Shown here: one piece after another, positions 25,552 to 43,901 of the stretch
Position numbering within the stretch: position 1 is the first letter of the stretch
Layout: each line of letters begins with the position of its first letter
Assembly: GCF_021596945.1 (NCBI RefSeq)
Contig: NZ_CP063779.1
Coordinates: 1,275,592-1,339,591, forward strand
DNA length: 64,000 nucleotides
Direction of reading: 5' to 3'
Origin: Mongoliitalea daihaiensis
GTDB lineage: Bacteria; Bacteroidota; Bacteroidia; Cytophagales; Cyclobacteriaceae
The notes under the pieces: generated by a model
Seen by the model: the letters and a program-made list of their open reading frames with translations, nothing else
Database searches by the model: none
Told to the model about the DNA's origin: nothing
Position numbers and translations under genes: made by a program

Positions 25552-28278
25552 ATGAACAAAATCAAATACGCTGCCACGATAGCTTTGTGCTTAGTGGTTT
25601 TGATGTCATTTGCACAGACAATACCCACACCCCAGTCCCACTTCGGTTTTGGGATGGGAGATAATTACATGTTGAGTAATTATACCCAGACAGAGGCCTA
25701 TTTCAAAAAGCTAGCAGATGCGAGCGATAAAGCTAAACTGGTCTCCATTGGGAAAACAGAGGAAGGCAGAGAGCAATACATGATGATTGTCACTTCCCCT
25801 GAAAATCACAGCCGATTGGATCAATTACGGGAAATTTCCGTGAAGATGGCCCGAGCAGAAGGGATTTCTGATGAACAGGCTAAGGCCTTTGCCAAAGAAG
25901 GCAAAGCAGTGGTCTGGATTGATGGAGGCCTTCACTCCACGGAAACTGTAGGTATCCACCAGTTGACGGAAACCTTGTATCAGGTGCTTACAAGGGAGGA
26001 TGATGAAACCAAGCGTATCCTGGAAAACGTGGTTATCCTATTTGTTCATGCCAATCCAGATGGTCATGAAAAAATCGGGGATTGGTACATGCGGGAGTCG
26101 GAACCAGAAAAGCGTAGCCTTTCCGGACTTCCTGTTCTGTATCAAAAATATATAGGGCATGATAATAACCGGGATTTCTATATCCAAAATATGCAAGAGT
26201 CTACCAATATGGGACATCAGCTGTTTGTGGAATGGATTCCTCAGGTGATGTACAATCATCATCAGCGAGGACCAGCAGGTTCTGTTTTGGCGGGCCCCCC
26301 ATACCGAGACCCTTTCAACCATGTGTTTGACCCCATGATGGTAACAGGAATTGATGCAGTGGGTGCTGCCATGTACAACCGCTTGAATGCGGAAAACAAA
26401 CCAGGATTTACCCGTATGAATGGCTCTGTTTTTTCTACCTGGTACAATGGAGGCTTGCGCACAACGACTCATTTCCACAATATTATCGGTATCTTGACTG
26501 AGATTATCGGTGGACCTAATCCAGAAGAAATACCTTTGGTTCCGGATCGATTATTACCGAATAGCAATACACCATTTCCAGTCACACCTCAGAAAACGTG
26601 GTATTTCCAGCAATCGATCGATTATTCAGTTTCCATGAACTTTGCTGTATTAGATTATGCAGCACGAAATAGCGACCACTTGCTGTACAATATGTATAGC
26701 ATGGGTAAAGGCTCAATAGCAAGGGGTTCTTCTGATTATTGGACACCTTATCCACGTAAGATTGATGCTATCAAAGAGGCCTACGAAAAAAACAAGGATA
26801 AATACCAGCTTTCTTCCAATCCTTTTGCCAGAAGAGGAGGTGCGATTCCTTCAGAATTCTATGAGGAAGTTTATCAAGCCCCTGATCAACGGGATCCTAG
26901 AGGATTTATCATTCCAGCTAATCAGGAAGACATGGCCACGGTCGTTAAATTTATCAACGCGTTGGTAAAAACAGGTATACGAATCGAGCGAACGACAGCA
27001 GCCTTTACCTTAGAGGGTACATCTTATCCCATAGGTTCTTTTGTTGTAAAAACTGATCAGGCATTTAGACCACATGTGCTAGACATGTTTGAGCCACAAG
27101 ATTATCCCAATGATTTTCAGTATCCAGGAGGTCCTCCGATCCGTCCGTACGATGCAGCAGGCTGGACTTTGGCGTATCAAATGGGTATTCAGTTTGACAG
27201 AGTGTTGGATGCTTTTGATGGACCATTTGAAACCTTGCCTTACGGGGAACTAGTCGCAGCACCTTCAAAGTCTTTGGCTTCTTCAAGTAATGGATACTTG
27301 ATCAGCGCTGCGCAAAATGATGCCTTTCCAGTGGTCAATCAATTGCTTAAGCAAGGCGTAAAAGTCTCTCGTATACAGAATGACGAAGGAGCAATTCCTG
27401 CTGGATCATTTTACATTCCATCTAGTGCGGAACGTAGATTGACTCCTTTGGTCCAACAATACGGCATTACGGTTGCTCCAGCACGCAGACAGCCAACCCA
27501 AGCGACGACAATTCAACCTACACGCATTGCATTATTTGACCAGTATGGAGGTTCCATGCCTAGTGGATGGGTTCGATGGATGTTGGAGCAGTATAATTTT
27601 GATTTTCAATTGATATTCCCGAAAGAAATTGATGCAGGAGATCTGAATAAAAAGTATGATGTAATTCTTTTTATATCAGGAGGGATTCCCCCTGCTGGGA
27701 GTAGAGGTGGAGGTTTCGGTATGGATGTAGCATCGATTCCTGCGGAGTATCAGCACATGATTGGGAGCATTTCCGTTGATAAATCAATTCCACAATTGAA
27801 GAAGTTTATGGAGCAAGGTGGGAAGGTGCTGACTGTTGGCTCGGCAACTGCATTGGCCTATCATTTAGATTTACCTGTAAGAAACGCTCTGGCTGAAATT
27901 CAACCGGATGGTTCCGAACGGATGCTTCCAAGTGGAAAATATTTTGTACCAGGTTCGGTTTTGGTAACTAGAGTCGACACTTCTCTGCCGCTCAATTGGG
28001 GATTGAAAACACATGCGGATGTTTTGTTTAATAACAGCCCTGTATTCAAACTGAAGCCAGAGGCTAAGCTGCAAGGGTTCCAAATTTTATCCTGGTTTGA
28101 CACTAAGACCCCCCTAAAGTCAGGTTGGGCTTGGGGACAGTCTTACTTGGAAGATGGCATTACAGCTTTTTCTGCTCCTGTTGGGAAAGGTAGTTTAGTG
28201 GCTTATGGTCCTGAGATTACTTACAGAGCCCAGTCTCATGGGACCTTTAAGATGTTGTTTAATAATTTGTATAAATAA
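25552..28278 (+). CDS. Secreted M14-family zinc carboxypeptidase (large multidomain, 908 aa)
   Basis: Signal peptide. M14 zinc ligands ..GGLHSTE.. (HxxE) and ..HANPDGHE... The long C-terminal extension is typical of Bacteroidota M14 peptidases. Confidence 0.75.
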   Translation: MNKIKYAATIALCLVVLMSFAQTIPTPQSHFGFGMGDNYMLSNYTQTEAYFKKLADASDKAKLVSIGKTEEGREQYMMIVTSPENHSRLDQLREISVKMARAEGISDEQAKAFAKEGKAVVWIDGGLHSTETVGIHQLTETLYQVLTREDDETKRILENVVILFVHANPDGHEKIGDWYMRESEPEKRSLSGLPVLYQKYIGHDNNRDFYIQNMQESTNMGHQLFVEWIPQVMYNHHQRGPAGSVLAGPPYRDPFNHVFDPMMVTGIDAVGAAMYNRLNAENKPGFTRMNGSVFSTWYNGGLRTTTHFHNIIGILTEIIGGPNPEEIPLVPDRLLPNSNTPFPVTPQKTWYFQQSIDYSVSMNFAVLDYAARNSDHLLYNMYSMGKGSIARGSSDYWTPYPRKIDAIKEAYEKNKDKYQLSSNPFARRGGAIPSEFYEEVYQAPDQRDPRGFIIPANQEDMATVVKFINALVKTGIRIERTTAAFTLEGTSYPIGSFVVKTDQAFRPHVLDMFEPQDYPNDFQYPGGPPIRPYDAAGWTLAYQMGIQFDRVLDAFDGPFETLPYGELVAAPSKSLASSSNGYLISAAQNDAFPVVNQLLKQGVKVSRIQNDEGAIPAGSFYIPSSAERRLTPLVQQYGITVAPARRQPTQATTIQPTRIALFDQYGGSMPSGWVRWMLEQYNFDFQLIFPKEIDAGDLNKKYDVILFISGGIPPAGSRGGGFGMDVASIPAEYQHMIGSISVDKSIPQLKKFMEQGGKVLTVGSATALAYHLDLPVRNALAEIQPDGSERMLPSGKYFVPGSVLVTRVDTSLPLNWGLKTHADVLFNNSPVFKLKPEAKLQGFQILSWFDTKTPLKSGWAWGQSYLEDGITAFSAPVGKGSLVAYGPEITYRAQSHGTFKMLFNNLYK

Positions 28279-28304
28279 TAGGAATAGTTAAAAAAAATAA
28301 TTTG

Positions 28305-28341
28305 AATCCGCAGAAAACGCCAGCTTTCTGCGGATTTTTTT
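28305..28341 (+). terminator. Rho-independent terminator after the M14 peptidase gene. It may also serve the convergent XRE gene.
   Basis: ATCCGCAGAAA / loop / TTTCTGCGGAT (11-bp stem), followed by a T7 run. Confidence 0.7.
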
Positions 28342-28367
28342 GTGGCAGGCTAGCTTTGCAATTATTA

Positions 28368-29000
28368 TTAGCTTTTTTGCAAATCTTCTAAATTTTTAAT
28401 TCTTTTTTCCAGATTGGTTATTCGGTCTTCCAAAGGAGAATATTCTTTAAACGGGGAGTATATACCAATCACTTCGTAAATCCCCGCGTTTTCTGAGAGT
28501 GAAATAGTTTGATTATTTAAAATAATTTGTCCCTCTAATACTTTTGTTAATTTACCTATTTGAAATCCCTCTTTTGATATAGTCAAATAAACTTTTCCTA
28601 AAACCGGTACATTTGGGATACCACATACAATTTCATCTTGTTGGATATAAGCGTTTGGTGGGAGCTCATTTCCTGAAATAAATACAGTGTTATTAGGGAA
28701 TATACTTGGAAAATCCTTTGTTTCTGTGAATTGTCTAGTAGCAGATGGAAGTGACTGAGTTAGGGAAGGTAAAGTGAAGCCACTGAGTTGGTTAACAGTG
28801 ATATTGCTGGTAAGAAGTGCATCAATTGTAAGGTTGAATACTTCTGCTGTTTTCATGATTGTTTCGATTTTGGGCTCCGCCCTTCCTTCTTCATAGGAAC
28901 TAATGACGCCCCTGCTTACATCAAGCATATCTGCAAGTTGTGCTTGTGTAAGTCCACGTACATTCCTTATTTTTTTTATGTTTTTACCAAATTTTGACAT
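28368..29000 (-). CDS. XRE-family HTH transcriptional regulator with an uncharacterised roughly 140-aa C-terminal domain, divergent from the PspA/flotillin cluster
   Basis: N-terminal KNIKKIRNVRGLTQAQLADMLDVSRGVISSYEEGRAEPKIETIMKTAEVFNLTIDAL is a classic Cro/C1 HTH. The C-terminal region has no Ser-Lys peptidase motifs and ends in a heptad coiled coil (RITNLEKRIKNLEDLQK). Confidence 0.7.
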   Translation of the reverse strand: MSKFGKNIKKIRNVRGLTQAQLADMLDVSRGVISSYEEGRAEPKIETIMKTAEVFNLTIDALLTSNITVNQLSGFTLPSLTQSLPSATRQFTETKDFPSIFPNNTVFISGNELPPNAYIQQDEIVCGIPNVPVLGKVYLTISKEGFQIGKLTKVLEGQIILNNQTISLSENAGIYEVIGIYSPFKEYSPLEDRITNLEKRIKNLEDLQKS

Positions 29001-29141
29001 AGGTGCAATTTAAATTAGATAAAAGTCAAATAATATTAGCAAAAAATAGCTAATAGTATTTGCAAACTTAGAAATTTTATTTAATATTGTGGAACAGTCA
29101 GTTTAAAAAATTCATTTTTAAAATAAACCTTAAAACAACAG

Positions 29142-29534
29142 ATGATGGACAAGTATTTTAAAATTGTAAAAGATTATATTCTTGAACTTGGTTCTGTAAT
29201 TCAATATGAGAGCGAATTAGATAATTTGCTTGTCATAGAAAATGAAGATTTTGGTGTCAAGAACATGGTGATTGGTGTTGCGACACCGATCATAATTATT
29301 GAGCAATATCTCTTTAACGTCAAAGATGAAGGGGAAATATTCAAGCAGCTTTTAATTAAAAACAGAGATATTGTGCATGGTGCTTTTGTATTGGATGAAA
29401 CTGGCGAGAAGGTCATATTCAGAAATACATTGCAGGCGGAGACTTTGGACTTAAAGGAATTGGAAAGTACCATCAATTCATTAGGCTTATTGCTCTCAGA
29501 ATATTCAAATGAAATACTATCATTCTCTAAATAA
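29142..29534 (+). CDS. Small acidic cytoplasmic protein, YbjN/T3SS-chaperone-like fold candidate. First gene of the PspA-flotillin cluster.
   Basis: 130 aa. The alternating hydrophobic pattern and the motifs ..NMVIGVATPIIIIEQYLFNV.., ..GAFVLDETGEKVIFRNTL.. resemble YbjN/DUF2170-type proteins. It ends 12 bp upstream of the pspA-like gene. Confidence 0.4.
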   Translation: MMDKYFKIVKDYILELGSVIQYESELDNLLVIENEDFGVKNMVIGVATPIIIIEQYLFNVKDEGEIFKQLLIKNRDIVHGAFVLDETGEKVIFRNTLQAETLDLKELESTINSLGLLLSEYSNEILSFSK

Positions 29535-29546
29535 ATCCTTATCGTT

Positions 29547-30269
29547 ATGAACGTTTTAAAAAGATTATTCAAAATTGGACAAGCAGAAACTCATTCGGCT
29601 ATAGACAAATTAGAGGACCCAATCAAAATGATCGAACAGGGTCTGAGAGATATGCGAGAAGATCAGGATCGTGCATTGAAAGCTTTAGCTGAAGTAAAGG
29701 CCATGCATATTAAGCGGATGAGAGAGTTAAAAGATTCCATCAGTCAAGAAGAGGATTTACAGAATAAATCTGTTTTACTTTTGAAAAAAGCCCATTCTGG
29801 AGAAATGGATACAATTGAAGCAGAGGGCTTTGTCAAAGAAAACCTAAGGAGAAAATCAAAATTGAGTCAGGATATTAAGATTCAAACAGAGGATGTCAAC
29901 AATTTGGAAAAGCAGGTGGCGACCTTAGAGCAAAATGTTAACCGGATCAAAGCGGGGATTAAGCAATGGGAAAATGAGCTCGCTACCTTGAAAGCGAGAA
30001 TTAAAGTGAGCAGTGCTACGCAAAAGATAAATAAGCAGATGACCAATATGGACAGTACTAGTGTGGTATCTATGCTTGAGCGCATGAAAGACCGAGTGGT
30101 TCAGGATGAGGCATTGGCACAGGCTTACGGAGAAATGGCAGAAAGTTCTATAAGCCATGATGAGAAAGTCAAAAAAGCATTGGAAGATATATCTGTGGAA
30201 GATGAATTAGCGCGGATGAAAAAGAATTTAGGACTTTCAGGAACAGATGTCTCTGATGATAAAGTTTGA
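29547..30269 (+). CDS. pspA: PspA/IM30/Vipp1-family protein (bacterial ESCRT-III-like)
   Basis: 240 aa. The N-terminus MNVLKRLFKIGQAETHSAIDKLEDPIKMIEQGLRDMREDQ matches the PspA signature (LF.R....I...A.IDK.EDP.KM.EQ..RDM.E). The remainder is an all-alpha coiled coil. Confidence 0.8.
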   Translation: MNVLKRLFKIGQAETHSAIDKLEDPIKMIEQGLRDMREDQDRALKALAEVKAMHIKRMRELKDSISQEEDLQNKSVLLLKKAHSGEMDTIEAEGFVKENLRRKSKLSQDIKIQTEDVNNLEKQVATLEQNVNRIKAGIKQWENELATLKARIKVSSATQKINKQMTNMDSTSVVSMLERMKDRVVQDEALAQAYGEMAESSISHDEKVKKALEDISVEDELARMKKNLGLSGTDVSDDKV

Positions 30270-30337
30270 TAATTTAATTCCGCTGAAATACCTTTTTGCA
30301 ATAGTTTCACGATAGATTTATCTCTTAGATCCCCATT

Positions 30338-30970
30338 ATGGAAAGACTACTGGAAATCTCTTTTGCTCCGGCCAATTTTATTCTGACTGTACTGAGTCTC
30401 TTGGTGCTGCTCTACTGGCTAATTGTCATATTCACAGGATTTGATATTGACGTCGCTGATATGGATGCAGATACCGATGTTAGTAATCCAGAGGTAGGCA
30501 ACGCTGGAAGTCAAGGATTTTGGAATGCCTTTTTGGAATTCTTTTATATTGGTGAGTTGCCAGTTATGTTTATCATATCCATTGTGGTGTTTTCCATGTG
30601 GTTAATCAATGTGAATGTCACTGCAATTTTTGGGATTGCAGATAGTCTACTGGGATTGCTGATCTATATACCTGGCTTGATAGTCAGTATGCTTATAACA
30701 AAAGTAGTGGCTAGGCCATTTATAAAAATTTATGCTCAGTTCAATCATAAAGGAGAAAAGGCTATAGATTTTATAGGAAAAACCGGTAAAGTGATAGCCC
30801 CCATTGGAAAAGATAAAATCGGCCAAATCGAAATTCAACTAGAAGGAGATGTGATAAAGGTTTATGCCAAATCAATAGATGATGAATTGATTAAGTTCAA
30901 TGAGACAGTAATCATTTTGGAAGAATCACTAGACAAAAAATACTATTTAGCTCAAAAATTTCAACTCTAA
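30338..30970 (+). CDS. NfeD-like membrane protein (YqiJ/DUF1449-like): N-terminal TM helices, an Asp-rich loop and a C-terminal OB-fold
   Basis: 210 aa with at least 3 TM helices, the loop GFDIDVADMDADTDVSNPE, and a C-terminal beta-rich segment GKTGKVIAPIGKDKIGQIEIQLEGDVIKVYAKSID..ETVIILEE typical of the NfeD OB-fold. It lies immediately upstream of the flotillin gene, as in the yqiJ-yqiK and nfeD-floT pairs. Confidence 0.55.
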   Translation: MERLLEISFAPANFILTVLSLLVLLYWLIVIFTGFDIDVADMDADTDVSNPEVGNAGSQGFWNAFLEFFYIGELPVMFIISIVVFSMWLINVNVTAIFGIADSLLGLLIYIPGLIVSMLITKVVARPFIKIYAQFNHKGEKAIDFIGKTGKVIAPIGKDKIGQIEIQLEGDVIKVYAKSIDDELIKFNETVIILEESLDKKYYLAQKFQL

Positions 30971-30986
30971 AAAAACCAATAAACTT

Positions 30987-33014
30987 ATGATGGAATCTTT
31001 TTATGTCGTAGCGGGCATGAGTATAGTCGTGCTACTAGGGCTCTTTGTGTGGCTCATTTCAATGTACAAAAAAGTAAGTCAAGGTCGGGTACTCGTACGT
31101 ACCGGTCAGGGCGGTGTAAAGATCTTCTTTAATGCGGGATTAGTAGTTCCAATCCTTCACAAAGAAGAAGTCATGGATATCTCTGTTAAGAAATTGGAAA
31201 TTTCAAGAATGTCGAAAGATGGTTTGATTTGTAAGGATAATATGCGTGCAGATATTAAAGTAGCATTTTTCGTGAGGGTAAACAAGTCTGTACAAGATAT
31301 TATCAACGTTGCTCAGACCATTGGCTGTGCCCGTGCTTCTGATCATGAAACCTTGGAAAGCTTGTTTGAAGCGAAATTCTCTGAGGCCTTAAAAACAGTC
31401 GGAAAGAAGTTTGAATTCATTGAGTTGTATGAGGCACGTAGGGAGTTTAGAGATGAAATCATTGATATTATTGGTACCGATCTTAACGGATATGTTTTGG
31501 ATGACTGTGCCATAGATTATCTGGAACAGACCAAAATGGATAATCTCGATAGAGATAATATTCTTGATGCTGAGGGTATCAAAAAAATTACGGAGCTGAC
31601 CGCCGCCCAAAATATTAAAGCTAACCAAATCCGCAGGGATGAAGAAAAAATCATCAAAAAACAAGATGTAGAAGCACGGGAGGCGATTTTGGAGCTTGAA
31701 AAGCAACTCAAGGAAAAGGAAGAGTCCCAAAGAAGAGAGATAGAAACAATCAAAGCACGTGAACAGGCTGAAATCGATAAAGTAACGTCCCAAGAAAGAC
31801 TCAAATCAGAGGAAGTTCGTATCCGAACGGAGGAACAATTGGAAATCCAGGAGGAAAACAAACTAAGGCAAGTCATCATTGCTGCCAAGAATAAGGAACG
31901 GGCTGAGGCTGTGGAAACCGAACGGGTGAAAAAAGATAGAGATATTGAAGCCACCGAGCGTGAGCGAATCGTGGCATTGGCTCAGATTGAAAAGGAAAAA
32001 GCAGTAGAGATTGAGAAGAAAAATATCCAAGATGCGATCAGAGAAAGAGTAGCCATGGAAAAAACCGTGGTAGAGGAACAGGAGAAAATCAAGGATGTCG
32101 AAGCATTTAAGGGAGCTAATCGGCAAAAAGAGGTTGCTTTGATCATTGCCGCCAAAGAAGCTGAAATCAATTTGATTGAAGAAGTGAAAGCTGCTGAATC
32201 CAAGGAGAAGTCCGCTAAACACGAAGCTGCAAAAATCATTATTGAAGCCAACGCTCGCAAAGATGCTGCTGATAAGGAAGCTGAAGCCAGAAAAATTATT
32301 GCTGAGGCCAAAGCCAAAGAGGAAGCTACCATCGGTATGTCAGAGGCACAGGTGATGCATGCAAAAGCAGATGCACTTGAGCGTCAAGGAATGGTAGATG
32401 CGGTCATCATTGAAAAAGTAGCAGAAGCCAAAAGAAAAGAAGGATTGGCTGAGGCAGAAGTCATTCAGGAAAAAGCTATTGCTGAGGCCAAAGGTATTCA
32501 GGAGAAAGCAGGCGCTATGAAGCAATTGAATGATGCTGGCAAGGAGCATGAGGAGTTCAGATTGAAGCTTCAAAAGGAGAAAGAAGTGGAATTGGCACAG
32601 ATCAGTATACAGAAAGACATCGCTGATGCACAGGCAAAAGTGCTTGCCGAGGCCTTTAAAACAGCTAAAATTGATATCGTTGGCGGAGATAATACATTCT
32701 TCAATAATTTGATTAAGCAAATTTCTACCGCCCGAGGAATAGATAAGTTGGTGGAAAATTCTCAAACTATCTCCCAAGTGAAAGATTCATTAATGGGGGT
32801 TTCCGAAACAGGAGACACTCCTAATGACCTAATTGAAAAAATCAGGGGTATAGCAAATAAATACGGGGTTACTACTGAAGATCTGAAAAACATATCCATC
32901 GCAGCACTGATTACACAAATACAATTGAAAGCAAGCGAAGAAGACAAAGGATTCTTAGCCAATATGTTATCGATTGCCAAAACTATGGGCGTCGAAAACA
33001 GGAGAATATTGTAA
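30987..33014 (+). CDS. Flotillin-like SPFH/band-7 protein (YqiK/FloT-like) with a long E/A/K-rich coiled coil
   Basis: 675 aa. N-terminal TM helix, SPFH core (..VSQGRVLVRTGQGGVKIFFNAGLVVPILHKEEVMDISVKKLEI..), about 300 aa of EA-repeat coiled coil, and a C-terminal flotillin tail. Confidence 0.8.
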   Translation: MMESFYVVAGMSIVVLLGLFVWLISMYKKVSQGRVLVRTGQGGVKIFFNAGLVVPILHKEEVMDISVKKLEISRMSKDGLICKDNMRADIKVAFFVRVNKSVQDIINVAQTIGCARASDHETLESLFEAKFSEALKTVGKKFEFIELYEARREFRDEIIDIIGTDLNGYVLDDCAIDYLEQTKMDNLDRDNILDAEGIKKITELTAAQNIKANQIRRDEEKIIKKQDVEAREAILELEKQLKEKEESQRREIETIKAREQAEIDKVTSQERLKSEEVRIRTEEQLEIQEENKLRQVIIAAKNKERAEAVETERVKKDRDIEATERERIVALAQIEKEKAVEIEKKNIQDAIRERVAMEKTVVEEQEKIKDVEAFKGANRQKEVALIIAAKEAEINLIEEVKAAESKEKSAKHEAAKIIIEANARKDAADKEAEARKIIAEAKAKEEATIGMSEAQVMHAKADALERQGMVDAVIIEKVAEAKRKEGLAEAEVIQEKAIAEAKGIQEKAGAMKQLNDAGKEHEEFRLKLQKEKEVELAQISIQKDIADAQAKVLAEAFKTAKIDIVGGDNTFFNNLIKQISTARGIDKLVENSQTISQVKDSLMGVSETGDTPNDLIEKIRGIANKYGVTTEDLKNISIAALITQIQLKASEEDKGFLANMLSIAKTMGVENRRIL

Positions 33015-33177
33015 GGGTCAATCGGCCTTGCAAACCGTGTATCCTTGAGGTTCTGACATCCAATTTCAGAGCCTCTATGGTATACCTTGGTATTGATGAG
33101 TTCTTCAATTCCCATTTCTGTAAACAGGTTCTTAACCTCATTTTTAAACCAATGCATTCTCAAGGATCCTCTGATAT

Positions 33178-36100
33178 ATGGAAACTAACATAGAAAAAGG
33201 TACATACGACATCATTCAGGCGAGGCTTCAGCAACAGCGGTCTTCCTTGGTTGAAAACCTTCAGAAGCTCAATCAGGAAAGACAGCAGATTTTTGGAGCA
33301 GTCGAATTCAAATTACTTTCCAATGTCCGCATCAATACCCAGCATAATTGCATCGCTAGGGATATCGTGTCCATTGGAGATGCTTGTCTTTTTGGCTATA
33401 ATGTCCGCTTAGGTCTGAAAACCGTCTTGGAAGTCGGAGATGTATTCAGTGTGTATCGCTTTTCAGACCACGAATTTCATCCCATGTCATTGGAGTTGAT
33501 TCAGGATAAAAGCTTTGCTGATGAACTGCAAAACCTTTATAAGTTTTATAGACATACGCAATTTTCAAGATTTTTTGTGCAAGGGAGTTTCCTCTATATG
33601 GTGTTTCAACTATCAGACAGTCCCACTGATATCAAGGCCTTTAAATGGTTGATTGAGGAAAATAAGCTTCAATTTGTGGATTCACGCAGTGCAGCTGAGG
33701 TCAAATTCCCTTTACAGTATGAATTTGAATGGATCAGAGCAACTAGGGATATGCAAAGAACCGGTAAGAATCCACATATCTCGATAGTTGATAAGGTCTT
33801 TGTGGAAACTACCAAAGGTAATCTGACCATCAAAGTTGAAGATAATACAGATGATGGATTAGGCATTTATTCTGAAGATGTCTTGCATTCAGATCAATCT
33901 TTGGATGATGGAGAAATACACTTTTGTGATTTAGGAAATTTAGTCTTGTTAAAAATCAAACCTTATCTGGAAAGCGAACGATACTTTATTTTTAATCATC
34001 GAGTAAAGAATGTTGTGAGAGTTGATACCTTAAAGGATGCTGGTATTCTGCTGCCTGATGATCAAGGAATCCTCCTTTCCAACGGCTATTACTTACAGAC
34101 AGGAGAAAATAAAATTTTTGACAGAAAAATTGAAGGGGTGAAATTTCTGAGGAAAATTCAATCTCCCAATGGAGAGGATTATCTCTTCATTTTTTATGAG
34201 GAAAAGAACCACGATTTTGTAATCCTTTCTTACAATGTCATTGAGCAAACTGTAAAAACACCGATTTTTTGTAATGGGTATACATTGTTTACTGAAGGTG
34301 AACTTTGCTATTTCAATACTGAAAAAGAGCCTGGTAAACATCACAATATTCAAGTTTGGCAAACGCCATACACCAAAGAAATTCTACCGAATGAAGCATT
34401 CAAAAATCATGAATTATACAAAATAGGTAATCGCTCTATTGTAAAAGCGATGGCAGAAGTTCAAGAGCTGATAGTACTTCTTGCCAAAGAAGATAGTTAC
34501 AACGGGTTATACCTGGACATTGAAAAAAGGAGTCAAAGCATTTTAGATGGGTATTTTTGGTTGAGGAGCTCCCAACTTCAAGCGCTTAGCCAAGCTTTAC
34601 AGGAAACTAAAGAAATTGCACTTGCTGCTATCGGTGAGTTTGAAAAGGTATTGCAGATCAAACAGCATACACTTTCAACTTACACAAATGTAAAAGAGAA
34701 AGTTGATAAAGTACTTTTTGAAACGAGGAGTTCCAACTTTGAAAGCTTAGATCAATATGTTTCTCTTCTTTCTCAGATGAGAGGCATTCGTGGTGAAATC
34801 ATTGGTCTTAAAAACCTTCGCTACATAGATTTGGAACAAGTGGAGCTGCTTGAAGTTGGCGTAGCTAAAAGAGCGGAAGAACTTTCACAGGCTTGCGTGC
34901 AGTTTTTGCTGCAGGATAATGCTTTAGACTATTACAAAGTAAAAATGGACTTTCTGACGAATGATGTCAGCAAATTAGAGAAGGTCATTGATGCAAAATC
35001 TTTGGAAAAGTCCTTTGACCAATTGTCCAAGGAATTGGAATTATTGATTGAGATCGTTAATAATCTGAATGTGGAAGATACAGCGCATGCTACTCAAATT
35101 ATTGAGAGTATTTCACTGATTTTCGCCCAATTGAACCAGCAACGAGTAGCGCTCAATAACCGACGGAAACAGATCGGAGAGCGAGAAGCAAGGGCTGATT
35201 TTCAAGCTCAGATGACCTTGTTTGAGCAGTCAATTGTCAATTTTCTGGAATTGGCCAATGACACGGCCAAATGCGATGAATACTTGTCCAAACTTTCAAT
35301 TCAACTGGAGGAACTGGAGGGAAGATTTGTCGACTTCGATGATTTTATTGATAAAATTAGTGAGAAAAGAGAGTCTGTATATGCTGCATTTGAATCAAAA
35401 AAAGGCAACTTAACAGAAGCCAGAAACAAACGGACAAATTCTTTATTTGCATCAGCTACGAGAATTTTGAACAGTATTAAATCCAGAGCAGCAACTTTTG
35501 GAACAGAGGTGGAAATCAACGGATATTTCGCTTCGGATCTTATGATCGATAAAGTAAGGGATGTTGCATCCCAATTACAATCCTTGGGAGATTCAGCCAA
35601 ATCGGAAGATTTGCTTAATCAATTGCAAGTATTGCAGCAGGAAGCTATTCGGGCTCTAAAGGATAAAAATGAACTATTTGAGGATGGCAATCAAGTCATC
35701 AAATTGGGAGAATATCGATTTGCTGTCAATCAGCAAAAGTTAGATCTTACCATGCTTGTAAAAAATAATACATATCATTTTCATCTGACAGGTACTTCTT
35801 ATTATGAGGCTGTACATGCTCCTGAAATGGAAGAGTTAAAGGATGTTTGGGATCAGGAACTGCCTTCAGAAAATAGAACGGTGCACCGTACAGAATACCT
35901 GGCATGGCAGGTTTTTCAGAGCTTGGATAAAAATAAAGTATGGATTGATTCTGATTTAGCTAATCAAATTGCACAATATACGGCCACACATTATGGAGAA
36001 GGTTATGTGAAAGGAGTTCATGACCAAGATGCACTGTTGATTCTTCAGGCATTGCTGGAAAAAGAGCGAGACCTGGGACTTTTAAGATTTGAATCAACCA

Positions 36101-38031
36101 CACGGGCTCTAGCCCAACTTTTTTGGTATTTCCTTCCAGAAGACCAAAAAGTGTTTTTTAAAAAACAGTTTATCTTCATTAACCTAATCAAGCAGGCCTT
36201 TGCCCATACAAAAGAAATTGAGCATCTCCTGCATACCTTAAGTACTGAAATCTCACAATTTAAAAATACCTATCAATTATTTTCAGATGTAAACTCTTAT
36301 CAGGCATCCATTTACCTTTCGGAACAGCAAGCCAATGACAGTTTCATTATGGAAGCTCAAGCCAATGAATTGTTGATTGCATTCAAAAAATCACTGAAGG
36401 AAAAAAACCTTGATATAAGCTTTGCTGAAGCACAACAGGAATTGAAGGCCTTTCCTGCGGCAATTTGGCACCTTTCTAACCATTGGATCAAAACATATAT
36501 TTCCACACTTCAAGTAGAATTTCCTAGGTCTATTGTGGAGGAGGCTACTGCTTTTATTATTACAGGTGCTTATCATGGTCAGGATATTCATCATGTTTCT
36601 GGAAAAGTTAGGCTTGAGGGCTTGAAGACAGCTATCGGGTCTCAAGAAACAGATTCAGTTGTTTACGACTTTGATTATCATGATTTCCATAGACGCTTAC
36701 GGTATTTTTCTGACCAAGTTCGTCCCAGATTTCAGCAGTTACAAGAGTTGAAGCATCACTTGATTTTGGAAAAGAAAAAAGCACTCCGTTTGCATGAGTT
36801 CCAAACACAGGTATTAACGAGTTTCGTTCGAAATAAATTAATCAACCAAGTATATTTTCCATTGATTGGACAAAATTTCTCCAAACAATTAGGGGTTTCT
36901 GGGCAAGATAAACGTACCGATCGCTCTGGAATGCTGTTATTGATTTCTCCTCCTGGGTATGGAAAGACTACCTTGATGGAATATGTCGCTGATCGTTTAG
37001 GTTTGATTTTTATGAAAATCAATGGTCCATCCATAGGTCATGAAATAACATCTGTGGATCCTGCCGAGGCCAAAAATGCTGCAACTAGGCAAGAATTACA
37101 AAAACTCAATTTGGCTTTTGAGATGAGAGATAATGTGATGCTTTATTTGGATGACATTCAGCATTGCAATCCAGAGTTCTTACAGAAATTCATTTCCTTA
37201 GCAGATGGGCAACGAAAGATTGAGGGAGTTTATAACGGGGTTTCCAAAACCTATGATTTCAGAGGGAAGCGCTTCTGTATTGTAATGGCAGGTAATCCTT
37301 ATACTGAAAGTGGAGAAAAATTCCAGATTCCAGATATGTTATCCAACCGAGCGGATATCTACAATTTAGGTGATACGGCATCCAATAGAGTAGATTTGTT
37401 CAAGTTAAGTTTGATTGAAAATGGCCTTACATCCAATATGTACCTAAAGTCTATCACCCAGTATGGCTTGGAAAATTTATACAAACTAGTGGAATTCATT
37501 GAAAATGGAGAGCAGCAATTGCCAGATTTGGAGGGGAATATTACGAGTATGGAAATTCAGGATTGTATCCAAGTATTGCAAAAGACCATGAAGATAAGGG
37601 ATGTTGTCTTAAAAGTAAATGCTGCTTACATAGCATCAGCTGCCATGGCTGATGATTACCGGGAAGAACCACCATTTAAGTTACAAGGTTCTTATCGTGA
37701 TATGAATAAATTGATGGGACAAATTGTGCCTATTTTGAATGAAAAAGAGGTCACACAACTACTGCTTGATCATTATCAAAACGAGTCCCAAACCTTGACA
37801 TCAGATGCTGAGTCCAATTTGTTGAAGTTAGCAGAAATGATGAACATGCTAGATCCAATCAAAAAAGAGCGTTGGGATGCCATCAAAGCCACATTTGTAA
37901 GAAACAATAGAGTCAGAGGATTTGGTGACAATGACCGAATGTCTCAAATTATTGGTCAGATGAATTTATTTGTGGAAGGTCTAGAAGGAATCAAACAAGT
38001 CTTGGATTATCGAAATTCGAAGAAGCAGTAA
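33178..38031 (+). CDS. Giant 1617-aa protein. It has an uncharacterised roughly 1180-aa N-terminal region (mixed beta then coiled-coil/alpha) and a C-terminal MoxR/AAA_5-like AAA+ ATPase domain.
   Basis: Walker A LLLISPPGYGKTTLMEY (about nt 36950). Walker B VMLYLDDIQHCNPEFLQKF. Then ..GKRFCIVMAGNPYTESGEKFQIPDMLSNRADIYNLG, paralleling MoxR ..PFFVLATQNP..LPEAQLDRF... The single uninterrupted ORF has protein-like composition throughout. It starts 164 bp after the flotillin stop and ends before a DUF58 gene, the classic MoxR partner. Confidence 0.6.
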   Translation: METNIEKGTYDIIQARLQQQRSSLVENLQKLNQERQQIFGAVEFKLLSNVRINTQHNCIARDIVSIGDACLFGYNVRLGLKTVLEVGDVFSVYRFSDHEFHPMSLELIQDKSFADELQNLYKFYRHTQFSRFFVQGSFLYMVFQLSDSPTDIKAFKWLIEENKLQFVDSRSAAEVKFPLQYEFEWIRATRDMQRTGKNPHISIVDKVFVETTKGNLTIKVEDNTDDGLGIYSEDVLHSDQSLDDGEIHFCDLGNLVLLKIKPYLESERYFIFNHRVKNVVRVDTLKDAGILLPDDQGILLSNGYYLQTGENKIFDRKIEGVKFLRKIQSPNGEDYLFIFYEEKNHDFVILSYNVIEQTVKTPIFCNGYTLFTEGELCYFNTEKEPGKHHNIQVWQTPYTKEILPNEAFKNHELYKIGNRSIVKAMAEVQELIVLLAKEDSYNGLYLDIEKRSQSILDGYFWLRSSQLQALSQALQETKEIALAAIGEFEKVLQIKQHTLSTYTNVKEKVDKVLFETRSSNFESLDQYVSLLSQMRGIRGEIIGLKNLRYIDLEQVELLEVGVAKRAEELSQACVQFLLQDNALDYYKVKMDFLTNDVSKLEKVIDAKSLEKSFDQLSKELELLIEIVNNLNVEDTAHATQIIESISLIFAQLNQQRVALNNRRKQIGEREARADFQAQMTLFEQSIVNFLELANDTAKCDEYLSKLSIQLEELEGRFVDFDDFIDKISEKRESVYAAFESKKGNLTEARNKRTNSLFASATRILNSIKSRAATFGTEVEINGYFASDLMIDKVRDVASQLQSLGDSAKSEDLLNQLQVLQQEAIRALKDKNELFEDGNQVIKLGEYRFAVNQQKLDLTMLVKNNTYHFHLTGTSYYEAVHAPEMEELKDVWDQELPSENRTVHRTEYLAWQVFQSLDKNKVWIDSDLANQIAQYTATHYGEGYVKGVHDQDALLILQALLEKERDLGLLRFESTTRALAQLFWYFLPEDQKVFFKKQFIFINLIKQAFAHTKEIEHLLHTLSTEISQFKNTYQLFSDVNSYQASIYLSEQQANDSFIMEAQANELLIAFKKSLKEKNLDISFAEAQQELKAFPAAIWHLSNHWIKTYISTLQVEFPRSIVEEATAFIITGAYHGQDIHHVSGKVRLEGLKTAIGSQETDSVVYDFDYHDFHRRLRYFSDQVRPRFQQLQELKHHLILEKKKALRLHEFQTQVLTSFVRNKLINQVYFPLIGQNFSKQLGVSGQDKRTDRSGMLLLISPPGYGKTTLMEYVADRLGLIFMKINGPSIGHEITSVDPAEAKNAATRQELQKLNLAFEMRDNVMLYLDDIQHCNPEFLQKFISLADGQRKIEGVYNGVSKTYDFRGKRFCIVMAGNPYTESGEKFQIPDMLSNRADIYNLGDTASNRVDLFKLSLIENGLTSNMYLKSITQYGLENLYKLVEFIENGEQQLPDLEGNITSMEIQDCIQVLQKTMKIRDVVLKVNAAYIASAAMADDYREEPPFKLQGSYRDMNKLMGQIVPILNEKEVTQLLLDHYQNESQTLTSDAESNLLKLAEMMNMLDPIKKERWDAIKATFVRNNRVRGFGDNDRMSQIIGQMNLFVEGLEGIKQVLDYRNSKKQ

Positions 38032-38090
38032 ATTTAGCTTTGAAGGGCATAATTGTATGCAAAATCTAAATGAAGATTGCAAAGGAATAA

Positions 38091-38468
38091 CTACCCCCTC
38101 TGCCCATAATAATTGTAATCCTTGATGATATGCTCAATAAAAGCTAAGTTTTTTTCCTCAGGGTTTAGCTGCAGCAGGGAGGCAGTTTTCTCGGCTAATT
38201 GTTTGATGAGCAAGAAATCCCCTGATTTTAGGGCTTCACTTTTGATCTGCTTGATTTGTTGATCGCTGAGGTTCATTACCTGTGGGTATTTGGGAACATA
38301 GTCTTCGGGAATTTCTTGTAATAAAGTTTCATGCAGGCCAATCCTGAATTTTTCTGATACTACAGTCGTCCCTGCGGCTACATCACCTACCCGCTGTCCC
38401 TTTCCGGTAATCAAAATAGTGATAATGGCCACCCCACCACTGGTCAATGAAATATCTACAAAGCGCAT
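38091..38468 (-). CDS. Small protein with a single TM helix and an RDD-family C-terminal-like motif at its N-terminus. Possibly a truncated RDD-domain remnant fused to a roughly 85-aa soluble domain.
   Basis: GGVAIITILITGKGQRVGDVAAGTTVV matches the conserved RDD C-terminal segment (G.RLGD..AGT.VV), but only about 10 residues precede it and an in-frame stop lies 14 codons upstream. Its start is 12 bp from the divergent ORF. Confidence 0.35.
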   Translation of the reverse strand: MRFVDISLTSGGVAIITILITGKGQRVGDVAAGTTVVSEKFRIGLHETLLQEIPEDYVPKYPQVMNLSDQQIKQIKSEALKSGDFLLIKQLAEKTASLLQLNPEEKNLAFIEHIIKDYNYYGQRG

Positions 38469-38480
38469 CAGCTGACTCCC

Positions 38481-39426
38481 TTGGAGAGAGGGGAGTATTA
38501 TTTTGGGGATTTACATGTATTTGTTCAAAGTAAGCTTGGTTTAGCCAAGCGAAGGTTGAGTTTCCAGCGGGGGCAATTGGTCAAGGTGTATCCTTCCTTT
38601 ATTCAAATGCAGCAGTATGATTTTTTGGCAACCAATACTCGAAGGATGGCACAAGAGCTAAAAAAAAATCAGGAGAATTGGCCACACCTTGGAGTTTGAG
38701 CAAATTAAGGAGTATACGGTGGGGGACGATGTGCGATCGATTAATTGGAAAGCCACTGCCAAAGCTGCTGATTTGATGGTCAATCAATTTCAAGATGAAA
38801 AGTCCCAGCACATCTATTCCATTTTGGACATGGGTAGGGTCATGCAGATGCCATTTGAAGGTTTGAGTCTCTTGGATTATGCAATCAATAGTTGTCTAGC
38901 ATTTTCCAATATTGCCATCAAAAAGGGAGATAAAGCTGGAGTAGTCACTTTTTCTCATGTTATCCATAAATCGCCAGCAGCGAGTAATCGGAAAACCCAT
39001 TTGTTGGGTATTTTGGAAATGCTCTATGGTCTAAAGACGGATTATTTGGATACGGATTTTGGGCTATTGTATACTTGGTTGAAGCGAAAAGTTAATCAGA
39101 GAAGTATGGTCATGCTTTTTACCAATTTCGAATATCATTCGGCATTGGAGCGTCAATTACCTTATTTACAGGCTATTGCCAAGCAACACTTACTAGTCGT
39201 TGTAATGTTTGAGAACACGCTGCTTGAATCTGTCGCTGAAAGCCAATCGGAGCGTCTTTCGGATGTGTTCAACCAAACCATTGCGGGGAAATTTATTTAT
39301 GATAAAAGATGGATGGCCAAGGAGCTCAACCGTCATGGAATCCAAACTATCCTTACCAAACCGAAGAAATTGAGCATTCATACCATCAACAAATACTTGG
39401 AGTTAAAGGCTAGGGGCTTGATTTAG
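38481..39426 (+). pseudogene. DUF58-family (vWA-like, MoxR-associated) gene split into two ORFs (38481-38699 and 38689-39426) by a frameshift in an A9 homopolymer. This is either a genuine pseudogene or phase-variable gene, or a sequencing error.
   Basis: The downstream ORF begins exactly at the DUF58 signature EFEQIKEYTVGDDVRSINWKATAK (consensus EF..REY.PGDDLRRIDWKA.AR) with no room for the usual roughly 60-aa N-terminus. Removing one A from the A9 run (38660-38668) fuses the upstream ORF in frame, giving ..ELKKIRRIGHTLEFEQIKEY.., which matches the ..HRSRRRG.SLEF.. consensus. The fused product is about 310 aa, typical for DUF58. Confidence 0.55.
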
Positions 39427-39469: not shown

Positions 39470-40765
39470 TCAATTCATCCTTCCCAACAACTGAATTCTG
39501 TGAGAGTCTAGTTTGATGAAAATAAACAGTAAAATCGTAAAGGACCACAGAGAAGACCCTCCATAGCTAAAGAATGGCAAAGGAATTCCAACTACGGGGA
39601 ATAAACCAATCGTCATTGAGATATTGATCATCACATGAAAAAGCAAGATGGAAACCACACAATATCCATAGATTCTGGAGAATCTATTTTTCTGGCGTTC
39701 GGCTAGGTATATTAATCGAATAAGTAAAGTACAGAAAAGAATGATGACCACTGTACTTCCAACCCATCCAAACTCCTCGCCCAAGGTGCAAAAGATAAAG
39801 TCAGTATGCTGTTCGGGCACGAAGTCAAACTTGGTTTGGGTTCCCTCCAGGTAGCCTTTGCCCCAAAATCCACCAGAACCGATGGCAATTTTCGATTGAG
39901 TAACATTCCAACCAACTCCCAAAGGGTCCAAATCGGGGTTGAATAGGACCATGATTCGGTTTTGCTGATGTTCTGGCAATTTGGAGACCACATAGTCTAA
40001 GCTGTATATGTAAACTACCGCGAGTACGCCGATACCAAGCAGTGTTAAAATTCTTCCAAGCCTTTTTTTACCCATCAAGATCAGAAGCCCAATTACAGCG
40101 AAAACTCCAATTACCAAATACAAATTATTTTCTATCCCTAAAGCCAGCAAAGAAACCGCAACAAGGGCCAATCCTAAAGCATAATAATATTGAGGCATGC
40201 CCTCTCTATAAAGCATGATAAAAAATGCAAAATACACCATGGCAGTTCCCGTATCGGGCTGAAGCATGATCAAAATCACAGGTATCATGATGATGATTAC
40301 TGCCTGAAATTGGTGTTTGATCTGAGAGAGATCAAAACTTGGCCTTTCCATGTACTTAGCAAGAGCCAAAGCTGTAGTAAATTTTGCAAACTCAGAGGGT
40401 TGGATCCTAAAAGAGCCAACACCAATGGAAAGAATTTGCCCATTGACTTCTTTTCCAATAAATGGAGTAATGATCAATAAAACCAAAAATACAATGTATA
40501 GAATCCATGCAAGGTTATCAAAGACTCTGTAATCTGCCACCATGATCAGAAGAATAATGATAAATGCGGCTCCAATACGAATAAGCTGTTGTCCAGAATT
40601 GATAGATAAGTCAAAAATACTCTTAGGAAATTGCTCATCATAGACCGCTGCATAGATATTGAACCAGCCAAAAATAACAAGGCACACGTATATGCCAACT
40701 GTTAGCCAATCGATCTTATTTAAATATAATTCATCCTTATTTCTCACCTTACATAAATTTTCCAA
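39470..40765 (-). CDS. rodA: Rod-shape-determining protein RodA (SEDS-family peptidoglycan polymerase)
   Basis: 431 aa with 10 TM helices. FtsW/RodA/SpoVE family motifs are present (..LGEEFGWVGS.., ..GGSSLWS..). It is the last gene of the mreBCD-mrdA-rodA operon, and its start overlaps the mrdA stop by 17 nt. Confidence 0.82.
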   Translation of the reverse strand: MENLCKVRNKDELYLNKIDWLTVGIYVCLVIFGWFNIYAAVYDEQFPKSIFDLSINSGQQLIRIGAAFIIILLIMVADYRVFDNLAWILYIVFLVLLIITPFIGKEVNGQILSIGVGSFRIQPSEFAKFTTALALAKYMERPSFDLSQIKHQFQAVIIIMIPVILIMLQPDTGTAMVYFAFFIMLYREGMPQYYYALGLALVAVSLLALGIENNLYLVIGVFAVIGLLILMGKKRLGRILTLLGIGVLAVVYIYSLDYVVSKLPEHQQNRIMVLFNPDLDPLGVGWNVTQSKIAIGSGGFWGKGYLEGTQTKFDFVPEQHTDFIFCTLGEEFGWVGSTVVIILFCTLLIRLIYLAERQKNRFSRIYGYCVVSILLFHVMINISMTIGLFPVVGIPLPFFSYGGSSLWSFTILLFIFIKLDSHRIQLLGRMN

Positions 40766-42548
40766 TCAGCACATATTCTTCCAATGCTTCTCGGGTAATA
40801 TAGCCGCGGATGTATTTTTCAATCATCAAACTTGCTGTACTTGCAGCTGCACGACCACCCCAACCAGCATTTTCTACATATACTGCAATCGCTATTTTCG
40901 GATCTTCTTTGGGGGCAAATGCCACGAAAACAGAGTGATCCTCTCCTTGTGGATTTTGGGCAGTTCCTGTTTTACCAGCTACTGCAATATCTTTGATGGC
41001 GGCTCTGGCTGCTGTCCCATAGATAGCCTCTGCCATCGCATCTTGGACCATATCAAAATGATGGGCGTCCACGCCCACATCGATTTTTGTGCGGTACTTG
41101 ATGTCGATTTTTTTCGGATCTCCATCGATCGCTTTGATCAAGTGAGGAGTGTAATAGTATCCCTTATTTGCAAAAACCGCCGCTAAGTTTGCCATCTGAA
41201 GTGGTGTGACAAGCATTTCTCCCTGACCTATGGAAAGGGAATAAATGGTAGAGTACTTCCAACGGTTGGGTCCATACACTCGGTCGTATAGTTTACTGGA
41301 AGGAATATCTCCACCTTTTTCATTGTATAAATCAATACCCAGTGGACCACCAAGACCAAATTTCAATACTTTTTCTCTCCATTCATTCAAGCCAATTTCT
41401 GTGTCCTTAAAGGTGTTTTTAGAAACTTCCCGGTTGATCATCATGCGGTAGGCTTGATGATAATATGGATTACAGGAATATTTGATAGCCCCAAATAGAT
41501 TGACTGGGTTGGGATGATTATGACATGCCACTAAGGATCTGTTACAGGAAAGCGTAGTATTTGGAGTCAATACTCCCATTTGTAAACCTATCAGTGATTG
41601 TACAACTTTGAAGATGGATCCCGGAGGATACATAGCCATGATGGGTCTGTTAAACAACGGCTTACTTTCATCCCGGTTGAGCAACATATAATTTGCACCA
41701 AATTTGGCACCTGTCAAGACATTGGGATCATAAGTAGGAGCTGATATCATAGCAAGGATTTCTCCTGTCTTTGGCTCAATAGCCACCACCGAGCCTCTTT
41801 TGCCGGCCATGAGTAGTTCTCCATATTCTTGAAGAGCAAGATCAATTGTCGAGGTAATGTTATTGCCTGCTACTGAAGCCGTGTCATATTCTCCAGACTT
41901 GAAAGGACCCTTATCCACCCCGCGGACGTTAACCATTTTATATTTGACACCTTTGACACCTCGAAGGGTTTTTTCATAAAACCCTTCAATTCCACTGAGG
42001 CCCACATAATCACCTTGTCTGTAATAGCGCACGGTGTCACGCTCAAGCTGTGTGGCAGAGATTTCACCTATGTACCCCAAAGCGTTGGCAGCAGATGGCT
42101 GAGGGTAGGATCTCACCGATCGAGTCATTACAAATAGGCCCGGATAATCAATCAAGTAATCCTGAATTCGTGCAAAATCCGTCGTTGAAATCTGCTTGAC
42201 AAGGGGAGAGGGCTTGACAGAGGAGTATTTTCTTGCTGCAGTATAGTTTTCGATCAGTTGCTCTTTGCTGATTTGAAAAATCTCACAGAAGCGTGTAGTA
42301 TCTTTTACATTAAATTCCCGAGGAATTACCATCAGATCAAAAATGGGATTATTATATACCATAATTTTCCCTGTTCGATCATACACCAACCCCCTGTACG
42401 GATGGTCTACCACTCGTTGAATAGCATTCCGTTCAGCTCTTTTCAAAAAGCTGTCATCCATGACTTGTATTGAAAACAGTCTTATTACGATTATCAACCC
42501 CACCAATACGACGACGATGCTGAGGATGATAGGTCTCTGATCATTCAT
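40749..42548 (-). CDS. mrdA: Penicillin-binding protein 2 (elongasome class B transpeptidase)
   Basis: 599 aa. N-terminal TM anchor and dimerisation domain. Transpeptidase motifs SxxK (..PGSIFKVV..), SxN and KTG (..AGKTGTAQ..). Confidence 0.88.
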   Translation of the reverse strand: MNDQRPIILSIVVVLVGLIIVIRLFSIQVMDDSFLKRAERNAIQRVVDHPYRGLVYDRTGKIMVYNNPIFDLMVIPREFNVKDTTRFCEIFQISKEQLIENYTAARKYSSVKPSPLVKQISTTDFARIQDYLIDYPGLFVMTRSVRSYPQPSAANALGYIGEISATQLERDTVRYYRQGDYVGLSGIEGFYEKTLRGVKGVKYKMVNVRGVDKGPFKSGEYDTASVAGNNITSTIDLALQEYGELLMAGKRGSVVAIEPKTGEILAMISAPTYDPNVLTGAKFGANYMLLNRDESKPLFNRPIMAMYPPGSIFKVVQSLIGLQMGVLTPNTTLSCNRSLVACHNHPNPVNLFGAIKYSCNPYYHQAYRMMINREVSKNTFKDTEIGLNEWREKVLKFGLGGPLGIDLYNEKGGDIPSSKLYDRVYGPNRWKYSTIYSLSIGQGEMLVTPLQMANLAAVFANKGYYYTPHLIKAIDGDPKKIDIKYRTKIDVGVDAHHFDMVQDAMAEAIYGTAARAAIKDIAVAGKTGTAQNPQGEDHSVFVAFAPKEDPKIAIAVYVENAGWGGRAAASTASLMIEKYIRGYITREALEEYVLIGKFM

Positions 42549-43895: not shown

Positions 43896-43901
43896 TCTTC
43901 A

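Follow-up and report, generated by a model that had tools for sequence, protein, structure and literature searches.

A Conserved Operon of PspA, Flotillin and a Giant MoxR-Type ATPase in Mongoliitalea daihaiensis, a Further Member of a Published Psp-Type Operon Class

The stretch of DNA analyzed here is 64,000 nucleotides long and comes from Mongoliitalea daihaiensis (NCBI RefSeq assembly GCF_021596945.1, contig NZ_CP063779.1, positions 1,275,592 to 1,339,591 of the forward strand); we refer to it as the window and number positions from its first letter. Our subject is a run of five co-oriented genes that encode a CesT-like chaperone-fold protein, a PspA/IM30 protein, an NfeD-like membrane protein, a flotillin, and a 1617-residue ATPase (the giant), together with a divergent XRE-type regulator gene. 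An earlier note on this DNA, made from the letters alone, had proposed that these genes form a novel membrane-remodelling module. We find that the six genes are a real and strongly conserved module whose arrangement is far from chance, and that the locus is a further member of a published operon class with few experiments, not a new system. The same operon was described by Ravi et al. (mSystems 2024, preprint 2020; PMC11237479, text section 19 and Table S3).

Gene Content of the Locus

The features of the locus are as follows.

28368-29000, minus strand: XRE/Cro-C1-type helix-turn-helix (HTH) regulator, 210 residues, divergent to the five-gene run
29001-29141: divergent promoter/operator region between the XRE and CesT-like genes
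29142-29534, plus strand: CesT/Tir-like chaperone-fold protein, 130 residues (PF22550, CesT_Tir_1)
29547-30269, plus strand: PspA/IM30 protein of the ESCRT-III superfamily, 240 residues (PspA_IM30)
30338-30970, plus strand: YqiJ/YuaF-type NfeD-like membrane protein, 210 residues (family profile against E. coli YqiJ)
30987-33014, plus strand: YqiK-type flotillin, 675 residues (family profile against E. coli YqiK)
33178-38031, plus strand: giant ATPase, 1617 residues (DUF3686, DUF7902, AAA+)

All gene positions given by the earlier note were confirmed, and two of its identifications, the XRE regulator and PspA, are borne out by clear domain matches. The regulator matches HTH_3 (E 1e-14), with the helix-turn-helix at residues 5-64. 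The PspA protein matches PspA_IM30 in Pfam (E 6.7e-40) with 137.5 bits against a gathering cutoff of 33.9, it is named PspA/IM30 family protein by NCBI, and both of its termini are conserved in an alignment of homologues, the N-terminus as an amphipathic segment and the C-terminus as the motif D.L..LK.KLG. The first gene of the run had been read as YbjN-like; the chaperone-type fold holds, and the specific family is CesT_Tir_1, which Pfam matches over residues 2-130, the full length of the protein, at E 2e-51. In Proteobacteria, a DUF2170/YjfI protein holds the place of the CesT-like gene beside PspA (loci L092 and L097 of the set described below).

The two membrane proteins that follow are recognized through their families. 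Searched alone, the NfeD-like protein falls below Pfam significance (YqiJ_N E 0.024, NfeD E 0.2), and the flotillin has no match in Pfam or NCBIfam, even at E 10, or among PDB sequences. A profile of 17 NfeD-like orthologues aligns with E. coli YqiJ (hhalign 95%, E 3e-8), and YqiJ_N is matched by 9 of these 17 relatives. The flotillin family profile aligns with E. coli YqiK over 417 columns at 32% identity (probability 100%, E 8.9e-40); Band_7 is matched by 3 of 17 flotillin relatives (E 5e-14), and the profile finds no match among PDB sequences. The NfeD-like protein, named "OB-fold-containing protein" by NCBI, appears to consist of a transmembrane region at the N-terminus followed by an OB-like domain, and the flotillin has a transmembrane segment, an SPFH domain, a long E/A/K-rich coiled coil, and a flotillin C-terminal region. 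The earlier description of the two genes as a yqiJ-yqiK-like pair agrees with the family profiles. The yqiJ-yqiK pair of E. coli and the yuaF-floT pair of B. subtilis show the homologous flotillin (100%) and NfeD-like partner (95%) in the same order; in E. coli, however, neither PspA nor a CesT-like gene nor an AAA+ giant lies beside the pair.

Intergenic gaps within the plus-strand run measure 12, 68, 16, and 163 nucleotides, and a scan of the window placed neither a terminator-like hairpin nor a Bacteroidota-type TAnnTTTG box in them, which fits a single transcript without proving it. Sigma-70 promoter and terminator scans are uninformative for a Bacteroidota genome.

Linkage of the Genes in Related Genomes

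Residues 1-700 of the giant belong to a family of 857 clusters at 50% identity (E <=1e-3), 247 of which reach 1e-30, and a scan of one genome per species places the giant in at least 595 genomes. Homologues of the window genes were mapped onto the best 80 giant loci of these, which come from Bacteroidota and three Pirellulaceae. Linkage was counted in the 67 of those 80 loci that have at least 6.5 kb of sequence upstream, with the following outcome.

48 of 67 loci: complete set, with XRE on the minus strand and then CesT-PspA-YqiJ-flotillin-giant
14 of 67 loci: YqiJ-flotillin-giant only
2 of 67 loci: PspA-YqiJ-flotillin-giant
1 of 67 loci: flotillin-giant
2 of 67 loci: none of the module neighbours beside the giant

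Flotillin adjoins the giant in 65 of the 67 loci, with YqiJ present too in 64, and PspA shares the operon in 50. The co-oriented arrangement under a divergent XRE gene, which links PspA, the SPFH/NfeD pair, and the giant and had been proposed from this one locus, is found complete in 48 loci. To the question whether the giant always sits next to pspA, flotillin, and nfeD, the counts answer largely yes for the latter two and only in part for PspA. We also considered 11 loci whose giants are 25-41% identical, along with a Pararhodonellum locus (L093) whose giant is 74% identical. All the divergent loci except L090 (10 of 11) have flotillin immediately upstream of the giant, and YqiJ is also present in the flotillin-bearing ones wherever the contig extends far enough.

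The invariant core of the module is YqiJ-flotillin-giant. The dyad of a chaperone (CesT_Tir_1 or DUF2170) and PspA is a frequent, repeatedly re-linked addition to it, and the regulator is an add-on as well. In one locus (L001) PspA is convergent and lies downstream of the giant; in L092 the order is YqiJ-flotillin-giant-DUF2170-PspA, and in L097, from Moraxellaceae, it is DUF2170-PspA-x-YqiJ-flotillin-giant. Because PspA has been re-linked in three arrangements (upstream, downstream after DUF2170, and convergent), selection appears to act on the linkage, rather than one order having been inherited. The cassette is conserved across Bacteroidota with variable flanks, and it recurs in Proteobacteria, with DUF2170 for CesT_Tir_1, and in other lineages. 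In Pararhodonellum the cassette is kept, and the flanking genes are entirely different.

Heterogeneous and unrelated genes, 0.5-3.9 kb in all, lie between flotillin and the giant in many genomes (loci L007, L008, L022, L036, L039, L076, and L080). These inserts include small transmembrane proteins, a beta-lactamase-like gene, and, judged from sequence, putative DUF559-endonuclease-like genes. A conserved gene at this position was considered and rejected on account of that heterogeneity; the junction tolerates such insertions, and a separate promoter for the giant may lie within it. A conserved gene downstream of the giant was likewise rejected, as the commonest downstream family occurs in 4 of the 67 loci. 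In L018 (6277-10196) and three other loci, a four-gene run directly 3' of the giant encodes two proteins that span the membrane several times (292 and 521 residues), along with a lipoprotein and a small protein that is soluble. We take this run to resemble the YjfK/YjfL/spermidine-synthase-like module, which Ravi et al. reportedly associate with other CesT-PspA operons. If it is that module, these loci would combine two modules that are each linked to PspA.

Architecture of the Giant ATPase

Pfam matches in the giant are DUF3686 (E 1.8e-181, residues 24-460), DUF7902 (581-665), and AAA/AAA_5 (from 1253). Two confident AlphaFold2 models, built on an alignment of 72 sequences of database proteins, cover residues 1-700 (predicted local distance difference test, pLDDT, 88.3; predicted template modelling score, pTM, 0.71) and residues 660-1617 (pLDDT 89.3, pTM 0.75). 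The parts of the protein are as follows.

Residues 4-39: N-terminal helix
Residues 45-395 (nucleotides 33310-34362): divergent beta-propeller-like domain of about 28 strands
Residues 412-832: three-helix-bundle/coiled-coil region that includes DUF7902, about 420 residues of long helices
Residues 840-1237: small beta and helical middle region
Residues 1253-1489 (nucleotides 36934-37644): MoxR-class AAA+ module, core with lid
After the AAA+ module: C-terminal helical tail

The fold of the AAA+ module is closest to structures of the MoxR family, the nearest being the maturation ATPases CbbQ and NorQ, in agreement with the C-terminal MoxR/AAA_5-type domain that had been assigned before. Its motifs are a Walker A of SPPGYGKTT (K1263), a Walker B of DDIQH (D1325-D1326), a sensor-1 of AGNP (N1373), and NRAD (R1391), with a further motif, R.EP.F.LQGSYR, on the C-terminal side of NRAD. 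All five are at least 90% conserved across the 72 sequences, which are 25-83% identical. Because the catalytic motifs are conserved to this degree, they argue for an active enzyme, with the caveat that the Walker B pair reads DD. Domain searches found no protease, DNA-binding, or nuclease domain in the giant; no MIT domain was detected, and the fold is not that of the classical AAA clade.

The giant is 100% identical to an NCBI protein of M. daihaiensis, and four proteins beside it have accessions from that genome. NCBI and UniRef name the giant "DNA repair ATPase", and Pfam describes DUF3686 as "ATPase involved in DNA repair". Neither the domain content nor the gene context lends this name support. 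Several proteobacterial giants have been named "MoxR-like ATPase" by the Joint Genome Institute (JGI), which suits the fold better.

The XRE Regulator and the Intergenic Region

An XRE homologue lies divergently upstream of CesT in 48 of the 67 related loci. The C-terminal domain of the regulator is short and poorly conserved. In relatives this domain (XRE residues 70-210; 28368-28790, minus strand) resembles the S24 domain of LexA/CI-type proteins. At the position of the S24-like "GDSM", the relatives appear to carry DNAM or NLEM, with the catalytic Ser replaced, and the position seems to be largely deleted in the window regulator, which is without about 30-40 residues of the S24-like domain. 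We consider that the domain is probably a non-cleaving dimerization or sensor domain. The regulator is entered as "cHTH+Protease" in Table S3 of Ravi et al. (PMC11237479).

The intergenic region contains TTAGCAAAAAATAGCTAA at 29036-29053 and the palindrome TTTGCAAA at 29059-29066. A sample of 51 intergenic regions between XRE and CesT (loci L004-L082), which are otherwise unalignable, contains TTGC[TA]A-N5-12-TTGCA in 29 cases against 0.1 expected, and TTTGCAA in 35 cases against 2.7 expected. The AT-rich dyad or repeat motif TTGCTAA…TTTGCAA (29036-29066) is a candidate XRE operator. Because a minus-strand TAnnTTTG promoter-like box at 29063-29070 overlaps the motif in the window, its operator and promoter readings are inseparable.

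Relation to Published Operons

The operon class of Ravi et al. has the same five structural genes in the same order with a divergent cHTH regulator, in the same phylum, Bacteroidota; their example is Dokdonia donghaensis ANH61663.1 (PMC11237479). The CesT-like gene is followed after 12 nucleotides by pspA, and the combination of a CesT/Tir-fold gene with a yjfJ-type pspA is the one by which that class is recognized. We see no architectural difference between the window locus and the class, apart from the shortened C-terminal domain of the window regulator. The abbreviated flotillin-YqiJ-ATPase form was also noted in that work (PMC11237479). Their paper contains no experiments, does not class the AAA+ protein as MoxR-type, and does not quantify the obligate links.

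A second relative has been studied in Pseudomonas aeruginosa. The bacABCDEF operon (PA3732–PA3727), or "biofilm-associated cluster" (PMC10948618; PMC13086221), encodes BacA, a DUF2170 protein with a crystal structure; BacB, a PspA; BacC, a short NfeD; BacD, the SPFH protein PaFlo3; and BacE (PA3728), annotated "ATPase". All six genes are co-transcribed by reverse transcription PCR, and deletion of bacA raises BacB-F 6- to 13-fold (PMC10948618). Phage infection induces PA3728-PA3732 (PMC12041424). The likeness to our locus lies in the succession of a chaperone-fold protein, PspA, a short NfeD, an SPFH protein, and then an "ATPase", and the Moraxellaceae locus L097, which has a bona fide DUF3686 giant, shows the same order. 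The bac operon is stress-induced as well as phage-induced, with BacA as a negative regulator. It differs in that its first gene is DUF2170/YjfI, not CesT_Tir_1, in its extra sixth gene, bacF, and in a proposed sigma-54 promoter instead of a divergent XRE gene.

Published primers across the bac junctions encode EGDFFN, PKNNCIA, and IKVMDR. These align with GGDNTFFNN of the flotillin (residue 566), T.HNCIA of the giant (54-60), and LKVNAA of the giant (1478), and the spacing of the motifs fits the reported amplicons of 557 bp and 501 bp. A primer scan of metagenomes found nothing, and when P0177 was used to seed a search for homologues, Betaproteobacteria and Moraxellaceae came up but P. aeruginosa did not. 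The bacABCDEF operon appears to be the proteobacterial version of the module.

The idea of an uncharacterized, novel system therefore survives in one half. The literature that we searched holds no biochemical characterization of the giant ATPase and does not mention DUF3686; the novelty, however, falls to the architecture of Ravi et al. and to the data on bacABCDEF.

We note that L097 has two extra genes, one of 139 residues between pspA and yqiJ (4670-5089) and one of 83 residues that overlaps the end of the giant (13300-13551). Neither has a Pfam match. The bacF gene of P. aeruginosa may correspond to an extra gene of this kind.

Proposed Role and Alternatives

The explanation that we favor, and consider moderately probable, is that the locus is an orthologue of the published Psp-type envelope-stress operon class and acts through remodelling of a membrane scaffold. 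Starting from the observed gene content, linkage hierarchy, MoxR-class fold, and conserved catalytic residues, we infer the following scheme. At the inner membrane, on the cytoplasmic side, flotillin and its NfeD partner would form a cage or microdomain of the SPFH type, a step modelled on what is known of HflK/C, QmcA-YbbJ, and flotillin cages. The giant would dock at this SPFH scaffold with its propeller and its arm of coiled coils. Working as an oligomeric motor of the MoxR type, it would spend ATP on the assembly, remodelling, or recycling of two structures, the flotillin scaffold itself and the PspA polymer that is recruited there. In line with this, an SPFH protein of B. subtilis is cited as needed for the placement of PspA at the membrane (PMC7619361). 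The CesT-like protein may hold or deliver PspA and dampen expression, by analogy with BacA in Pseudomonas. The XRE repressor would set the expression of the operon through the conserved intergenic motif, with repression until stress.

Several observations weigh against this scheme or leave parts of it loosely attached. PspA is missing beside the giant in 14 of the 67 loci and so may not be what the ATPase acts on directly. The Walker B of the giant is DD, not DE, and no VWA partner is conserved beside it, though MoxR ATPases normally have one. Compared with the MoxR-class ATPases that work with VWA partners (CbbQ, NorQ, RavA), the giant thus departs in its Walker B and in having no conserved VWA/DUF58 partner gene, and it adds an N-terminal extension of about 1250 residues, made up of the propeller and coiled coils; its sequence similarity to RavA is marginal (hhalign 17%). 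The identification of BacE as the counterpart of the DUF3686 giant, drawn from its "ATPase" annotation, the primer motifs, and the architecture of L097, is probable but indirect. Finally, the literature searched reports no physical interaction, ATPase activity, or phenotype for the AAA+ protein of any member.

A different role for the same parts, which we regard as unlikely, is that the flotillin cage confines a MoxR-type chaperone that matures or quality-controls some other membrane client, and that PspA is merely a co-induced membrane patch. The analogies would be HflK/C enclosing FtsH, and CbbQ or NorQ acting on Rubisco or NOR. That CbbQ and NorQ are the closest structures fits this idea, as does the conservation of the core without PspA, and the pairing of SPFH proteins with AAA+ proteins is an established theme (HflKC-FtsH, PMC13220708), in which an SPFH scaffold and an AAA+ ATPase likewise come together at the inner membrane. 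However, neither a candidate client gene nor a VWA adaptor is conserved nearby. FtsH is moreover a classical-clade AAA protease with transmembrane helices, whereas the giant is without a protease domain and its N-terminal part is modelled by AlphaFold2 as a helix, a beta domain, and helical bundles.

It is likewise unlikely, in our judgment, that the giant is a functional Vps4 analogue with the PspA polymer as its specific substrate and with flotillin and NfeD as accessories. PspA is in the operon in 50 of the 67 loci, mainly in Bacteroidota, and it is re-linked in other orders in L001, L092, and L097; the conserved C-terminal motif of PspA could serve as a docking site, and ATP-dependent remodelling was proposed by Ravi et al. 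as well (PMC11237479). In archaea and eukaryotes, a polymer-forming protein of the ESCRT-III superfamily is likewise encoded with a dedicated AAA+ protein, Vps4, and it was this comparison that the earlier note had drawn. According to a 2025 review, an ATPase of the Vps4 kind "appears absent in bacteria", and the Band-7 partners of PspA have undetermined roles. Unlike Vps4, the giant belongs to a different AAA+ clade, that of MoxR, has no detected MIT domain, and is tied first to flotillin and YqiJ and only facultatively to PspA. The Vps4-style interpretation therefore did not stand as it was put, and it needs re-centring on flotillin.

A wider form of the proposal is that the giant uses ATP specifically to remodel flotillin cages, PspA polymers, or both, and would be a functional Vps4 analogue with an independent origin in a different AAA+ clade. 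We hold this to be doubtful, if less so than a motor specific for PspA. If true, the giant would fill the place of the energy-consuming partner that has been missing for the ESCRT-III/SPFH membrane scaffolds of bacteria.

Two further readings have essentially no support. The first, which we consider very improbable, is that the locus defends against phage, or aborts infection, by sensing how phage perturb the membrane. The cassette does have an XRE regulator and variable flanks, but none of the five structural proteins matches PADLOC, where only generic HTH and coiled-coil matches appear, and there is no nuclease or toxin effector domain; the module is a single-copy chromosomal one conserved over whole families, unlike patchy defence islands, and induction by phage is expected of any Psp response. 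The second, that the giant is a DNA repair ATPase whose position is incidental, has only the database name in its favor and is extremely improbable, as no DNA-binding or nuclease domain was found in the giant, its conserved neighbours are all membrane-associated proteins, and the literature searched is silent on DUF3686.

We see the locus as well suited to experimental work on an open question, not as a discovery. A widespread operon that hard-wires flotillin/NfeD, and usually PspA, to a giant MoxR-type motor is an obvious test case for active scaffold remodelling. To the published description our analysis adds that the obligate partner of the giant is flotillin/YqiJ and not PspA, that the motor is MoxR-class and without a VWA adaptor, and that P. 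aeruginosa bacE/PA3728, for which expression and phenotype have already been studied, is probably a homologue open to genetic work.

Sequence Flanking the Cassette

Between the giant and rodA lie the remains of a DUF58 gene and a short open reading frame (ORF).

38091-38468, minus strand: ORF of 125 residues that abuts DUF58 and faces away from it; its sequence (…GQRVGDVAAGTTVV…) resembles the C-terminus of some larger membrane protein
38481-38699 and 38689-39426: two pieces of DUF58

The earlier note had closed the locus with a degraded DUF58 gene as the usual partner of a MoxR ATPase. The gene does read as degraded: its frame is lost within a run of nine A (A9, 38660-38668), and joining the frames restores the DUF58/VWA_2 match, with the usual N-terminal portion still missing. 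NCBI annotates the 245-residue tail as an intact DUF58 protein. As a component of the module, DUF58 was rejected, since no homologue lies near the giant in the 80 loci (E 1e-5) or in 12 further related loci, which include L093 and L097. Because of this absence, and because even the commonest downstream family is confined to 4 of the 67 loci, we regard DUF58 as an unrelated relic and not as the partner of the giant. The 125-residue ORF may be RDD-like; together with the DUF58 fragments it looks like a deletion scar, possibly of a MoxR–DUF58-type cluster.

Directly downstream, on the minus strand at 39470-44930, lies a cell-shape operon of mreB, mreC, an ORF of 173 residues in an mreD-like position, PBP2, and rodA. 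This mreB–rodA neighbourhood of the cassette is not common to related genomes. The G+C content is 0.35 across 28001-30000, the end of the cassette with the regulator, CesT, and PspA, against 0.40-0.44 in the flanks. The low G+C content and the different flanks in Pararhodonellum are compatible with a cassette that moves as a unit.

The HflKC pair that had been noticed at the start of the window is indeed there, as two adjacent Band_7 proteins of 298 and 312 residues (18-1849). With this HflK/C-like pair and the flotillin, at least two separate SPFH systems are encoded within 33 kb of the window.

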